From the sequence record NC_106597.1: a stretch of DNA of 64,000 nt. One strand, 5' to 3'. This document shows, one piece after another, positions 10,052 through 64,000 of this stretch (position 1 is its first letter; every line of letters begins with the position of its first letter). The notes under the pieces are model-generated. The model was not told the DNA's origin, made no database searches, and worked only from the letters and a program-made list of their open reading frames with translations. A program made the translations under genes and the position numbers. The stretch comes from Escherichia phage BB1.

Positions 10052-12901
10052 TTAAATAGTAGCCCAACCAACAGATTGCTCACCATTTTCCCCTTCTGCT
10101 CTAATCCTGAATCGTAGTTTACGATTAATTCCTAAAGCACCAGAGTTTAATAGTGCAAAATCCGCCTTATTATATGTTAATAGATAGTCATAGGTATAGG
10201 CATCCTCTATCCTAATACTACGAAGCATTCTATCCTGAGAATCATGTATTTCTAGAGTATAATAAATTTCTGGAATTATTTCTTCCTCGGGTATCTTATC
10301 CCAAGCAAGTTTCACGTCTGGTCCAACAAATTCAGTCACGTCTCCAGAAGCTGTATTAGTTACTCTAAAGTTACTAACTACACTTAAGTTTCTAGCAGAG
10401 TTAAGATCCACGGAAAGGGTAACAGGAGAACTACGTCTACCATTAATATCAACAGCACGTAACTCAAAAATAGCTAAACCAGCAGGCTCACCTATAATCT
10501 CCTGAACCATCCTTTCATTAGGATTATTCTCTAATTGCTGAATTATGTAAGGATCTACATGACCTGAATGAGCTATAGAATAATATACTACGTTATTAGT
10601 AAGACTAGGTAGCCAAGATAGTTCCCCATTTTTACCTATAGCACCTATCATACCACCAGGAGTTGGTGTATACTTAAAGTCCCTAGGAGGAAGTACATTA
10701 TTACTAATATCTGGAATATCATTACCACTGTTATCCACTTGATCAGAGTTGATAAATACATCTTCACCATACTCTTGTAGTGTTAAGTTAATCTTACCAT
10801 CACGAGTATTTTCTACTTCATCTACTAGGAAGAACTTATCCTTCCACCCATAACGCTCATAAGTAAAAGCAATCGGATCATTTGGCTCTATACCAATAAA
10901 CTTATAAGGTACTGAGAAGCTAAGTGTACGTGAGTATCTAGATTTTTTAAGTTCCCTATCTGCATAACTACGAGCAGTGTAGTAGTTAGTAATATTTGCA
11001 AAAGATAGCTGAAGTTTTTTATCCAAACCCTTATCTTGTTCTTTAAACTTAGAGTTATAGAATGTAATAGAGTTTGTTTTCCAACTTAGCGCAGGATCTA
11101 CTAGGGATGCTTGTACTGAGTTAAACTTATTTCTACCAGTAGTATCAGATAAGTCTAAGTCCCCGTAAGTATCTAGAAAACCTATCTTCAAAGGAGTTGT
11201 AGAATGCTTCTCTACAGTTATTCTATACTCACCAGATAAGTTATTTATAGCTCCGCCAAAAGAATCCAGTACTCCTTGAACATTTTTAAATACTGATTCG
11301 GAGGTATCTAATATAGTGTTTAACTGAACTACTTGGCGATGTTCAGAAATAGAATCACTCCAACCAACATATCTCCAATAGGGTTGCCAGCTAATCTGAT
11401 AAGATTCATCAATTATATCTAGAATTTTTGCTTCTGATATAATCTTTTGTAGCGGGAACTGATCCAGAGTTATATTAGCCCCATAACGTTCAGAGGTTAG
11501 ATAGTCCATGAGCTGCCAGATACCGTTAAGGCTAGTTTTATCAGCTTTAACAGACCCATCAGAGCTATATACTTTGACTTTCTTACCTTGTACTTCAGCA
11601 CTAATTTCTGGAATTTCAGTTCTATTCTCATTAATAGTAAATCTAACTACAGCGTAGGCTGTGTCTAAGAGCTTATAACGAGAATCCCAGTATTCTGGGC
11701 CATTGCCATTTTGATTTTGTAAATAGAAACCCTTTCTTTTAGCGATATCCACTAATACTTGAGCTGCTGTCTGATCTGGTTTGCCATGAAAAGTCCATAT
11801 TCTTATGTCACCATTACCATCATTATACTTATACTCCTGACCATGAACAGAAGGTTGAGAAGTGCTTGTACCAGCAGCTAGTCTATGCATTGTATCACCT
11901 ACTAGTTTCTTACGACCGAAGCAGGTTCTAGTATTGGAATCTGCTTCATCGAAACAGATCATTGGGCTGTCCCCAATATAGAAATCTAGGAATCCATCAA
12001 TTTCTCCTTCCGAAAAAGCATAGACTACATACACTATATTAGGGTTATTTAGCTCAGTATCTGCAAAAATAGGGATACCAGGGATTTTCTGAACCCCATA
12101 TACAACAGGTATAAATTTAGCAGCTAAGTTAAAGTCTAAATCAACTTCTTTAGTTACAGTCTCATAATACTTTTTAAGACTGTAACTTCTTGATAGCCCA
12201 AAAAGTTTCTTCTTGGACTGAAGTTTATAACGCTCTTCTTTTACTTGATATTTAGCTAATATAGTGGTACTTTTATTAGAGTGGAAGAAGCCATAGTCTT
12301 CTTGGTACTCAGGACGTTTAGCACCATTAGAAGGTTGTAATTGTCCATTAACAACTTCAAGCCCTCGGTGGGAAGCATCATCGGTATAACGACCGTTCAC
12401 TCTATCAAAATCATAGAACTGATTAGAACAGTTCCATGTTATAACAGAGGTTCCTATACCGGAAGTACTAACGTTGTCCTTTATTCCGCCGCCAGTAATT
12501 TTACCACGAAAGAATAGTAAAGGTCCATTAGTATCAGGATCTACAGGAAGAATATTACCTTCTTCATCAATTATAGCTTGATGTATAGTGATAGTTCTAT
12601 CTAAGAAAGATACTCCATTTTGAACTAGTTTTAATACTTCATCTTCTGCTGTACCAGTTATGGTAAAAGATAGACTACCAATAGATAGTTCACGGTTTTG
12701 CTTATGGGAGCCGATACTTTTTACTTTACCAGATCTATATAAGATTCCATTATAGGTAACATCTCTAAAGTAGTCAGTTAAATAAACATAAGTAGCAGCA
12801 GAGCCTGATGAACTAGGAAGCTCTAAAGCTATAAGACAAGCTGTTTTTAGCTTGTCATGAGTATTAAGATATGTTTTAGCACTATCGAGTATCTGCTTCA
12901 T
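10052..12901 (-). CDS. baseplate hub protein (pb3-like)
   Basis: 949 aa, same length as T5 pb3; position between the distal tail protein and pb4-like genes. Confidence 0.6.
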   Translation of the reverse strand: MKQILDSAKTYLNTHDKLKTACLIALELPSSSGSAATYVYLTDYFRDVTYNGILYRSGKVKSIGSHKQNRELSIGSLSFTITGTAEDEVLKLVQNGVSFLDRTITIHQAIIDEEGNILPVDPDTNGPLLFFRGKITGGGIKDNVSTSGIGTSVITWNCSNQFYDFDRVNGRYTDDASHRGLEVVNGQLQPSNGAKRPEYQEDYGFFHSNKSTTILAKYQVKEERYKLQSKKKLFGLSRSYSLKKYYETVTKEVDLDFNLAAKFIPVVYGVQKIPGIPIFADTELNNPNIVYVVYAFSEGEIDGFLDFYIGDSPMICFDEADSNTRTCFGRKKLVGDTMHRLAAGTSTSQPSVHGQEYKYNDGNGDIRIWTFHGKPDQTAAQVLVDIAKRKGFYLQNQNGNGPEYWDSRYKLLDTAYAVVRFTINENRTEIPEISAEVQGKKVKVYSSDGSVKADKTSLNGIWQLMDYLTSERYGANITLDQFPLQKIISEAKILDIIDESYQISWQPYWRYVGWSDSISEHRQVVQLNTILDTSESVFKNVQGVLDSFGGAINNLSGEYRITVEKHSTTPLKIGFLDTYGDLDLSDTTGRNKFNSVQASLVDPALSWKTNSITFYNSKFKEQDKGLDKKLQLSFANITNYYTARSYADRELKKSRYSRTLSFSVPYKFIGIEPNDPIAFTYERYGWKDKFFLVDEVENTRDGKINLTLQEYGEDVFINSDQVDNSGNDIPDISNNVLPPRDFKYTPTPGGMIGAIGKNGELSWLPSLTNNVVYYSIAHSGHVDPYIIQQLENNPNERMVQEIIGEPAGLAIFELRAVDINGRRSSPVTLSVDLNSARNLSVVSNFRVTNTASGDVTEFVGPDVKLAWDKIPEEEIIPEIYYTLEIHDSQDRMLRSIRIEDAYTYDYLLTYNKADFALLNSGALGINRKLRFRIRAEGENGEQSVGWATI

Positions 12902-61039: not shown

Positions 61040-61115
61040 TGGAGCGGCTAGAGGGAATCGAACCCTACTCAGCGAGGCTTGGAAGGCCTGCGACACAACC
61101 CGTGTGCTTAACCGC
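61040..61115 (-). tRNA. tRNA-Gly (anticodon TCC; Trp-CCA reading not excluded)
   Basis: Acceptor GCGGTTA/TAGCCGC, T-loop TTCGATT, anticodon loop CTTCCAA, encoded CCA. Confidence 0.45.
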
Positions 61116-61123
61116 TTATTATT

Positions 61124-61199
61124 TGGCTGGAGAAGGAGGAATCGAACCTACCATTAACGGAGTCAAAGGCCGTTGTGCTAACCGTTACACTACTCTCCA
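61124..61199 (-). tRNA. tRNA-Gln (anticodon TTG)
   Basis: Acceptor TGGAGAG/TTCTCCA, anticodon stem ACGGC/TCCGT, loop CTTTGAC, T-loop TTCGATT, encoded CCA. Confidence 0.5.
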
Positions 61200-61742: not shown

Positions 61743-61819
61743 TGGGGTGGCTAGTGGAATTCGAATCCACATAGGCCTGATTCACAATCAGGATCATTAA
61801 CCAGTTATGATATAGCCAC
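61743..61819 (-). tRNA. tRNA-His (anticodon GTG)
   Basis: Acceptor GTGGCTA/TAGCCAC, D-stem TCAT/ATGA, anticodon stem CCTGA/TCAGG with loop TTGTGAA, T-arm GTGGA-TTCGAAT-TCCAC, encoded CCA. Confidence 0.6.
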
Positions 61820-62187
61820 AATTGAAAACTCGCAGGGTTAGCGAAACCATCCTCAATTAGCATGTTCTAGAATACTAATCAAGTTATCTCCTATTGCACG
61901 CAGCTCAAGACGAGTACGAATTTTCAATTGTGGCGGCTCTCAGAAACTCTTCTCCTCTAGCCTTAGCAGCTTACTCCCGAACGCATGTCGGGTAAGTCTT
62001 ACTAAGAACATCAAGTAGCACCGTTACACTTTGAGCCATAGATATATCAAGAAGCAGAAGGACTTGAACCTTCATGAGATAGACCATTTATCTCAGCCGC
62101 TTTATGAGGTATGTTGCAGGGAGTGGATGTTCCCTATAAACCTTTTAGGCAGCCCCGTCTACCGATTCCGGCATACTTCAAGAATTT

Positions 62188-62361
62188 TTATAAACCAGCA
62201 GAAGCCTCATTCAAAGCATCAACAATAGCTTCACGTTGGGTCATTCCATACCCGGTGGAATCTAGGTGGGGCAAATAAGCCATCCATCCCTTATCTGTTT
62301 CATGAAGACATGCTTTAAATTTTTTACCATCCTTCATTGTTACAGTAACTGTTTTGCTCAT
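62188..62361 (-). CDS. hypothetical small protein (57 aa)
   Basis: Sub-threshold ORF with SD AAGGAAA; MSKTVTVTMKDGKKF... Confidence 0.3.
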   Translation of the reverse strand: MSKTVTVTMKDGKKFKACLHETDKGWMAYLPHLDSTGYGMTQREAIVDALNEASAGL

Positions 62362-62477: not shown

Positions 62478-62568
62478 TGGCGGAAGAGGAGAGATTTGAA
62501 CTCTCAAGCCGTTTTACCAGTCAGCCACTTTCCAAGCGGTTTTCGTCGCCAATTCGATTTGCTCTTCC
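62478..62568 (-). tRNA. tRNA-Ser (anticodon GGA)
   Basis: 91 nt with long variable arm; anticodon loop TTGGAAA; T-arm GAGAG-TTCAAAT-CTCTC; perfect acceptor GGAAGAG/CTCTTCC; encoded CCA. Confidence 0.6.
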
Positions 62569-62680
62569 AATAATAAGATGATGCCTCTATCACACCAGGC
62601 AGTTACGCCCCGCTGGGATTCGAACCCATTAAAACAGCTCAACCGAGATAGTAGGTTTAATTTACTCTGACCATCAAATT

Positions 62681-62757
62681 TGGTGCGTGACAAGGGATTC
62701 GAACCCTCAAAACCCGACTTCTAAGGACGGTATGTATGCCAATTCCATCAATCACGC
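62681..62757 (-). tRNA. tRNA with anticodon reading TAG (Leu-type anticodon in a short-variable-arm scaffold); identity uncertain
   Basis: Acceptor GCGTGAT/GTCACGC, T-arm GAGGG-TTCGAAT-CCCTT, encoded CCA, anticodon stem CCGTC/GTCGG (one mismatch) with loop CTTAGAA. Confidence 0.4.
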
Positions 62758-63971: not shown

Positions 63972-64000
63972 CATTCTAGACAGGACTCGAACCTGCTATC
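63972..64000 (-). tRNA. partial tRNA (3' half only; 5' part beyond window end)
   Basis: T-arm ACAGGACTCGAACCTGC nearly identical to that of the tRNA-Pro gene, followed by a 7-nt acceptor strand; no encoded CCA. Confidence 0.3.

Follow-up and report, generated by a model that had tools for sequence, protein, structure and literature searches.

The DNA analyzed here is a 64,000-nt stretch of Escherichia phage BB1 (NC_106597.1; the whole stretch is referred to as the window), and it comes from a T5-like phage (Demerecviridae). Between a small open reading frame (ORF; 62188-62361, minus strand) and the gene for tRNA-His, sequence homology and gene order place orthologues of three small stable RNAs already known from bacteriophage T5, namely RNA1, RNAI, and RNAIII. 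These genes are arranged in tandem, head to tail, with spacers of 0-13 nt, and they lie within the early tRNA gene cluster. Our main subject is RNA1, which appears to be a tRNA-Leu mimic that does not decode. The locus contains the following features.

62038-62182, minus strand: RNA1 gene, orthologue of T5 rna1, with T5-style boundaries; its cloverleaf core is at 62050-62180
61931-62037, minus strand: RNAI gene, 107 nt, orthologue of T5 rnaI, placed by the T5/BF23 annotation and mapping
between RNAI and RNAIII, minus strand: spacer CAAT, from mapping of the T5 sequences onto the window
61821-61926, minus strand: RNAIII gene, 106 nt, orthologue of T5 rnaIII, abutting tRNA-His
61743-61819, minus strand: tRNA-His(GUG), downstream neighbor in the co-oriented cluster, identified by ARAGORN and Rfam

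The locus is not new: the reference annotations of T5 and BF23 have included RNA1, RNAI, and RNAIII for about 20 years. Three misc_RNA genes are annotated between ORF T5.063 and tRNA-His in the records of T5 (NC_005859), T5 st0 (AY692264), and the BF23 tRNA region (NC_042564). The first (rna1/RNA1, 144 nt) is labelled "tRNA-like stable RNA with unknown functions," the second (rnaI/RNAI, 107 nt) "stable RNA with unknown functions," and the third (rnaIII/RNAIII) is 106 nt. All three align base for base with the window, and their order is the same as in T5 and BF23 (a T5.063-like ORF, then RNA1, RNAI, RNAIII, and tRNA-His). Positions, lengths, and folds also agree, with 85-91% nucleotide identity; the window copy of RNA1 is 85.5% identical to T5 RNA1 over 138 nt. 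Nothing essential distinguishes the two sets, and what varies by lineage is the RNA1 stems, with compensation, and the A-rich internal loops.

Salmonella phage PS3-1 is 100% identical to the window across the 371 nt separating the ORF at 62188-62361 from tRNA-His. A total of 498 phage records match this interval, mainly T5-like phages of Salmonella, Escherichia, and Klebsiella, and the RNA1 element is carried by about 490 phage records in at least four genus- or subfamily-level groups. Across these roughly 490 T5-like genomes, most records are blank at the RNA genes, are covered by coding sequences (CDSs), or, in one case, have a tRNA-Leu call. The T5 record AY587007 has no annotation at the locus, many T5-like GenBank records (e.g., PS3-1 and SP3) have one to three "hypothetical protein" CDSs over the three RNAs, and record JLBYU40 calls the RNA1 locus a 134-nt tRNA-Leu(taa). 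The 57-aa ORF upstream is labelled HicB family in one record; a Pfam search of three flanking small ORFs, this one included, gave no matches.

Standard search tools pass over the interval. Default ARAGORN places 12 tRNAs in the window, every one of them on the minus strand and within 59.4-63.6 kb, and none in 61820-62187. Rfam likewise has no match there at the gathering threshold or at E<=10. An earlier reading of this DNA (the original prediction) had described tRNA-like fragments without a canonical fold at 61960-62140, and its expectation that covariance models would call no standard tRNA agrees with the lack of any RF00005 match in 61820-62187, even at E<=10. The ARAGORN check that it proposed gave a divided answer: no tRNA is called by default, but RNA1 is called when introns are allowed. 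Matches to the T-loop motif GGTTCRANNCC number 14 in the window, where 0.28 would be expected by chance, and every one is on the minus strand in the tRNA cluster.

As modelled, RNA1 is a complete class-II cloverleaf of the tRNA-Leu type in which a structured arm of 48 nt stands in for the anticodon loop. The minimum free energy (MFE) structure of 62050-62180 is a cloverleaf with an extended anticodon arm (-40.6 kcal/mol, z = -2.1). Its parts, in transcript order except where one strand or loop is listed with its arm, are as follows.

62174-62180, minus strand: acceptor 5' strand UGAAGUA; 1-72 is U.U and the other six positions pair
62155-62171, minus strand: D arm CCG-GAAUCGGUAGA-CGG of tRNA-Leu type with U8 G9 ahead of it; invariant in 23 of 23 aligned sequences
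62149-62153, minus strand: anticodon-stem 5' strand GCUGC, pairing with 62096-62100; three of the five pairs change on both sides
62101-62148, minus strand: anticodon-loop expansion of 48 nt, replacing a 7-nt loop; helices 4 and 5 covary
62117-62136, minus strand: apical hairpin UAGGGA-ACAUCCAC-UCCCUG, in which the stem varies with compensation
62123-62130, minus strand: apical loop ACAUCCAC, 8 nt, near-invariant, with a CAUCC core
62096-62100, minus strand: anticodon-stem 3' strand GCGGC, placed by covariation
62076-62094, minus strand: long variable arm GAGAUA-AAUGGUC-UAUCUC, a class-II feature with a near-invariant loop
62057-62073, minus strand: T arm GAAGG-UUCAAGU-CCUUC, the "textbook T-arm" of the original prediction
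62050-62056, minus strand: acceptor 3' strand UGCUUCU; no CCA is encoded
62038-62049, minus strand: trailer UUGAUAUAUCUAU, running to the RNAI start

The model thus has seven acceptor positions, a D stem of 3 bp, an anticodon stem of 5, a middle helix of 4, an apical stem of 6, a variable arm of 6, and a T stem of 5. The 48-nt expansion consists of an A-rich internal loop, a 4-bp helix (62140-62143/62107-62110), a second internal loop, and the apical hairpin. The arms and tertiary core of a tRNA are kept (U8, A14, A15/U48, G18G19, and a UUCAA T loop).

Several elements had been recognized earlier but assembled differently. The T arm GAAGG-TTCAAGT-CCTTC is present, although at 62057-62073 and not at 62060-62076, which is off by 3 nt, and the 7-nt 3' acceptor-like strand was found as TGCTTCT (62050-62056, minus strand). 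It had been claimed that no complementary 5' acceptor strand exists within 100 nt upstream. This is literally correct, but the partner, (U)GAAGUA at 62174-62180, lies 118-124 nt upstream and falls outside 61960-62140, a span covering the 3' two-thirds of RNA1 and the 5' three-quarters of RNAI. Once the upstream partner strand is included, 62050-62180 gives a full cloverleaf by both MFE and covariation, and the claim of a missing canonical fold does not hold. The suggestion of a non-canonical or interrupted tRNA that hand-folding misses fits the T-arm half, as this is RNA1 with its tRNA-Leu-type cloverleaf and 48-nt arm.

Comparative evidence for the fold comes from an alignment of 23 distinct RNA1 sequences from Tequintavirus, Epseptimavirus, Sugarlandvirus (Klebsiella), and Pectobacterium phage DU_PP_V. 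Standard pairs occupy 95.5% of cells, compared to 40-50% when the 3' partners are slid by one to three columns. Both sides change in 13 of 36 base pairs, and none of 500 shuffles reached the observed covariation score. In the acceptor (pairs 2-7/125-130 of alignment A3), four pairs change on both sides; the variable arm is paired in 100% of cells, with one pair changed on both sides. The apical stem varies with compensation (UAGGGA/UCCCUG, UAAGGA/UCCUUG, CUAGGA/UCCUAG, GCAGA/UCUGC, and, in Pectobacterium phage My1, UUGAGA/UCUCAA). RNAalifold independently gives the same helices, with the invariant D region folded differently. All 23 sequences share U8 G9, the D arm CCGGAAUYGGUAKACGGG, U48, and the T loop. 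The apical loop ACAUCCAC is conserved apart from two single-base exceptions, and the variable-arm loop AAAUGGUC is near-invariant; this loop conservation holds among lineages that are 75-100% identical.

A covariance model (R1) built from this alignment gave 137-163 bits for T5-like copies (163 for the window and 158.7 for BF23). Its best matches other than RNA1 were ordinary tRNA-Leu genes (39-60 bits; Leu according to ARAGORN or annotation), and tRNA-Ser genes scored lower. R1 also found an unannotated homologue (82.8 bits) in phage My1, which belongs to a different subfamily (Mccorquodalevirinae). There the loop is CAUCCUA, which keeps the CAUCC core, the apical stem is fully compensated, RNAI and RNAIII are absent, and an ORF follows directly downstream. 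Vibrio phage pVp-1, from another subfamily, had only ordinary class-II tRNAs when searched for RNA1. A metagenome pattern scan based on the loop alone returned 120 loci, two of which (L095 and L150) were confirmed by R1 as T5-like, the rest being chance matches or ordinary tRNAs, and further pattern scans of IMG/VR gave no RNA1 phages beyond those already collected.

Bacterial tRNA-Leu is the closest ordinary relative of the RNA1 body. Shared features are the acceptor stem, U8 G9, the 3-bp D stem with its GAAUYGGUAGA loop, the 5-bp anticodon stem, the long variable arm, U48, and the T loop UUCAAGU, and the best non-self matches of R1 are tRNA-Leu genes. RNA1 differs in its 48-nt arm in place of a 7-nt loop with U33 and in its 6-bp variable arm with a 7-nt conserved loop; unlike tRNA-Leu, it is also without a match to the Rfam tRNA model. 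A73 is the main identity element for Escherichia coli LeuRS, and the RNA1 discriminator is not A in most lineages. The anticodon of RNA1 is not conserved, its gene encodes no CCA, position 1-72 holds U.U, and the discriminator varies; we therefore consider RNA1 a non-decoding tRNA-Leu mimic. The pattern of sequence conservation indicates selection on the tRNA-Leu body, the apical loop with its CAUCC core, and the variable loop, but not on any "anticodon." Taken jointly, the identity as T5 RNA1, the cloverleaf fold, and the non-decoding reading have a probability of about 75% in our estimate.

RNAI, which follows RNA1 directly, has a cloverleaf-like topology, and its 5' part looks derived from tRNA-Gln. 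The D-arm-like segment reported earlier, GTGTAACGGTGC (GUGUAACGGUGC as RNA), is present at 62018-62029 (minus strand), inside RNAI. Its likeness to the neighboring tRNA-Gln genes was also borne out, as the D arm of tRNA-Gln(UUG) (61181-61190) matches the first 10 nt of the segment exactly; this 10-mer, GTGTAACGGT, occurs exactly twice in the window, at these two sites. The stem-loop CCCGA-CATGCGT-TCGGG was likewise found (61976-61992, minus strand). What had been taken for tRNA halves in the wrong order, a T arm followed by a D arm, is the end of RNA1 followed by the start of RNAI. RNAI has the following parts.

ends of 61931-62037, minus strand: closing stem GGCUC/GAGCC followed by G-CCA, in a gene that aligns over its full length with T5 rnaI
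62018-62027, minus strand: D-like hairpin GUA-ACGG-UGC, kept in three variants
61962-62006, minus strand: long central arm with the tip CCCGA-CAUGCGU-UCGGG (61976-61992), from the fold
61943-61952, minus strand: small hairpin GAA-GAGU-UUC, kept in three variants

Three sequence variants of RNAI occur, one of the window/T5 type, one of 100 nt (some Epseptimavirus), and one in DU_PP_V. All have a 5-bp closing stem with G-CCA, GUA-ACGG-UGC, a long central arm, and GAA-GAGU-UUC, as judged by RNAalifold, separate folds, and inspection, on which the covariation also rests, as the variants do not align in register. The closing stem is compensated in DU_PP_V (GGCUC/GAGCC to GGGCC/GGCUC), and the central-arm loop differs by variant (CAUGCGU, GCGAGAAU, and GCAACAAU).

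RNAIII is a multibranched RNA (MFE z -4.1) organized around one long stem.

61917-61930 with 61819-61832, minus strand: RNAIII closing stem, 14-16 bp

Compensatory changes preserve this stem in saus132 and DU_PP_V, where the interior is replaced. The annotated T5 RNAIII ends sit in the closing duplex with a 2-nt 3' overhang, which fits processing by RNase III or RNase P. Klebsiella phages have only the RNA1 core and a diverged RNAI-like start. Pairing between the apical CAUCC of RNA1 and a GGAUG in RNAIII was considered and rejected, as the RNAIII site varies (GGAAG, GAAUG) and the loop is constant.

A T5 tRNA counteracts a tRNA-cleaving defense system (PMC10802454). Recent work has thus shown T5 tRNAs to neutralize tRNA-cleaving defense, and RNA1, read as a non-decoding mimic, lies in the same cluster, which makes it a reasonable anti-defense candidate. 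We propose that RNA1, RNAI, and RNAIII would be co-transcribed with the flanking tRNAs and released by host tRNA-maturation enzymes, and that an RNase P cut at the RNAI 5' end would set the RNA1 3' end. The L-shaped tRNA body of RNA1 could then engage a factor that recognizes tRNA shape, with specificity given by the apical and variable loops. RNA1 may thereby serve as decoy or adaptor, aimed at an enzyme that binds tRNAs or at a defense nuclease that targets them. Its function would be accessory and dispensable on laboratory hosts. The deletion phage T5-123 (29191-32442) is viable without RNA1, RNAI, and RNAIII (PMC10802454), and these RNAs are therefore accessory on such hosts. This processing route and decoy role are put forward tentatively, and we regard them as possible but not probable. 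The UGG of the variable loop might also kiss the CCA (CCU) of the apical loop and fold the arm back on the body; the potential pairing is 3 bp in T5-like phages and 5 bp (UGGGA/UCCUA) in My1, and it is offered only as a lead. Complementarity of the apical loop to 23S rRNA or to CsrA-type GGAUGU was set aside, as a 5-7-mer is too short to be meaningful.

Several points weigh against the interpretation of RNA1 as a non-decoding, trans-acting tRNA mimic. Removal of 40 nt from T5 RNA1 leaves a perfect Leu(UAA) loop, CUUAAAA, which keeps a spliced decoder alive for that lineage. In Klebsiella (Sugarlandvirus) phages, the 3' acceptor strand of RNA1 overlaps the RNAI-like start and one acceptor pair is G.G, so processing may differ there. 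The boundaries of the three RNAs are those of the GenBank annotation. The grounds for the decoy role are only shape, conservation, and analogy with the anti-defense role of T5 tRNAs; no experiment on T5 RNA1 function was found in the literature searched, and a search for primary papers on the T5 stable RNAs returned none. The conserved loops could also serve processing or stability instead of a role in trans.

This last point leads to the main rival, in which the RNAs are structured punctuation whose folds only direct processing by RNase P, RNase III, or exonucleases and stabilize the flanking mRNA and tRNAs, with no function in trans. The arrangement of the genes between an ORF and tRNA-His, head to tail with spacers of 0-13 nt, favors such a role. 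RNAI resembles an RNase P substrate in its GCCA end, RNAIII has annotated ends that lie in a long duplex and leave a 2-nt 3' overhang, and both RNAs keep their closing stems while their interiors diverge greatly from lineage to lineage. For RNA1 the explanation is less suitable: the sequences of its apical and variable loops are conserved across subfamilies, which processing signals do not need, and My1 has RNA1 directly before an ORF without RNAI or RNAIII. By the T5 annotation, the products also build up as stable RNAs. Punctuation therefore fits RNAI and RNAIII better than RNA1, and as an account of the locus we consider it unlikely.

Introns in tRNA genes include group I introns (cyanobacterial and plastid tRNA-Leu(UAA)) and the bulge-helix-bulge (BHB) introns of archaea and eukaryotes, and in these, as in RNA1, an insert in the anticodon loop extends the arm as a helix. 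RNA1 could accordingly be an intron-containing tRNA in which an insert of about 41 nt is excised and the exons are ligated to give a decoder, such as tRNA-Leu(UAA) in T5. ARAGORN calls a tRNA in every RNA1 lineage when introns are allowed, and the tRNA-Leu(taa) annotated in JLBYU40 agrees with this, as does the CUUAAAA found on the 3' side in T5-type sequences. The calls, however, are Phe(aaa) with the intron at 37 for the window, Leu(taa) at 33 for T5, Phe(aaa) at 35/36 for saus132 and the Klebsiella phage, and Val(aac) at 39 for DU_PP_V, so the inferred anticodon (aaa, taa, aaa, aac, aaa) and the intron position (33-39) shift between lineages and excision does not leave the same functional anticodon loop in all homologues. 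The flanks of the insert drift between lineages and the insert's own loop is near-invariant, the opposite of what is expected for a spliced intron in a decoder. The insert also belongs to no recognizable intron class. At 40-41 nt it is far too short for group I and has no group I core, Rfam gives no intron match, and by inspection there is no BHB, the 4-bp helix being flanked on both strands by internal loops and not by 3-nt bulges. The species recorded as a stable RNA in the T5 annotation is the unspliced one of 144 nt. RNA1 has no encoded CCA although the neighboring tRNAs encode theirs, position 1-72 holds U.U, and the discriminator varies by lineage among U, C, and A instead of being a constant A73. 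To our knowledge, no tRNA splicing endonuclease occurs in bacteria or T5-like phages, which also counts against splicing. We consider this reading improbable.

The remaining alternatives have little in their favor. Decaying tRNA pseudogenes or neutral spacer, the former suggested in the original prediction, would agree with a region missed by standard tRNA finders and with the tRNA-Gln-like D-arm fragment in RNAI. Compensatory substitutions in every helix, loops conserved across phage subfamilies, and retention in about 490 genomes make this very improbable. The same prediction raised a permuted or split tRNA, with the T-arm 3' half encoded upstream of the D-arm 5' half and the two joined after processing, and in the transcript the T arm is indeed followed about 30 nt later by the D-arm-like 12-mer shared with tRNA-Gln. 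This is ruled out by the covarying closing stems, as the acceptor strand of the T arm covaries with the upstream strand at 62174-62180 and the D-like motif is part of RNAI, an RNA with a closing stem, compensatory changes, and a GCCA end of its own; in addition, RNA1 occurs without RNAI in My1 and the two are separate stable RNAs in the T5 annotation. Small protein-coding genes, as annotated over the region in PS3-1, SP3, and other records and consistent with a 38-aa ORF in the window and T5, are practically excluded: no ORF of at least 25 aa is common to the lineages, none is found in saus132, DU_PP_V, or the Klebsiella phage, and the RNA1 substitutions compensate base pairs.

Other RNAs are comparable to RNA1, the non-decoding mimic, in design. 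Bacteriophage T4 has two stable RNAs at the end of its tRNA cluster, rnaC (species 1) and rnaD (species 2), whose roles are still unknown (PMC3014915; PMC9697503). The fold of rnaC includes a canonical T arm together with a long variable-like arm and an extended arm of about 60 nt, but rnaC has no tRNA-Leu D arm and no detectable sequence homology to RNA1. Homology of rnaC and rnaD to RNA1 was rejected, as R1 gives rnaC only 14.2 bits, in the T-arm half only. YrlA RNA and the tRNA-like domain of tmRNA also join a tRNA-like D/T elbow to a long helical module distinct from an anticodon arm. YrlA RNA ends in a long helix and its acceptor is capped, whereas RNA1 ends in an acceptor stem. ARAGORN found no tmRNA, and no Rfam match occurs in the region at E<=10.

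RNA2 of T5 and BF23 is similar to RNA1 in having a tRNA-like acceptor/D/T frame, an expanded anticodon arm of about 65 nt, and a location in a phage tRNA cluster. A family from uncultivated phages (contigs L040, L020, and L011) also has a tRNA-like frame with an expanded anticodon arm of about 60 nt and occurs in tRNA clusters. The inserts of both are unrelated to that of RNA1 and have no CAUCC loop, and there is no homology beyond the tRNA body. The family members (L040 13879-14057; L020 2482-2643, minus strand; L011 1669-1827) have the RNA1-type D arm, a covarying insert of about 60 nt, and a longer variable arm, and have no Rfam match. Contig L040 also has a GOLLD RNA with an embedded tRNA (11234-11702; RF02032, 168.5 bits). 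Weak R1 matches with the tRNA-Leu D-arm motif, a long insert, and a T arm occur in contigs L026 (4512-4673, minus strand), L009 (5546-5669), L024 (3724-3888), and L017 (4015-4156); the one in L026 has a normal-looking anticodon arm followed by a variable region of about 80 nt. T5 and BF23 have five more "stable RNAs with unknown functions," RNA2, RNA3, RNAIV, RNA2H, and RNAX (NC_042564: 5701-5825, 6619-6692, 5371-5473, 4056-4227, and 13651-14434, respectively), and the RNAIV fold is strongly stable (z = -3.3).

These comparisons suggest that a tRNA scaffold with a custom arm is a recurrent design in phage tRNA clusters. No Rfam family exists for RNA1, RNAI, or RNAIII or for this design, and we know of no family description for phage tRNA-scaffold RNAs. 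A bolder and rather doubtful proposal is that T5 RNA1, RNA2, T4 rnaC, and the L040/L020/L011 family form one class, in which a host-processed tRNA body would display a lineage-specific arm as a decoy or inhibitor of host factors that recognize tRNAs, such as anticodon nucleases. Its action would run parallel to the known anti-defense role of T5 tRNAs. For RNA1, the covariation-supported structure turns the old question of the T5 and T4 small stable RNAs into defined experiments with loop mutants.

Some other features of the tRNA cluster were observed. At 61043-61116 (minus strand) is a tRNA-Gly(UCC)-like sequence with the anticodon loop CUUCCAA and a CCA end; its T arm is good and its D arm odd. 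It is missed by default ARAGORN and is below the Rfam tRNA threshold, having only a 30.9-bit tRNA-Sec match; tRNA-Gly1 of T5 and BF23 is annotated at the syntenic position. A class-II tRNA-Ser(GGA)-like sequence at 62478-62568 (minus strand), not called by ARAGORN, corresponds to T5 tRNAS2(GGA), which is flagged as a pseudogene in AY587007 and according to NC_005859 is not convertible to an amber suppressor.

Between tRNA-Ser2 and tRNA-Leu(UAG) is a gap of 112 nt (62569-62680, minus strand) with an orphan T arm, GGTTCGAATCC (62616-62626), and no obvious cloverleaf. T5 carries an HNH homing endonuclease gene, hegC, as an insertion at the corresponding site. The orphan T arm could be what is left of a tRNA or a scar of homing. 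tRNA-Leu(UAG) itself (62681-62757, minus strand) shows a length polymorphism beside a homing endonuclease gene: it is 77 nt here and in BF23, whereas in T5 it is annotated with 85 nt, overlapping the hegC CDS. At the window end, beyond the last ARAGORN tRNA, a T-loop motif, GGTTCGAGTCC (63983-63993, minus strand), probably belongs to a further tRNA cut by the window edge. Bacterial-type tRNA-His normally has G at -1. The tRNA-His next to RNAIII has U at -1, opposite C73 (61819-61820, minus strand), and the T5 annotation includes the extra 5' base (78 nt).

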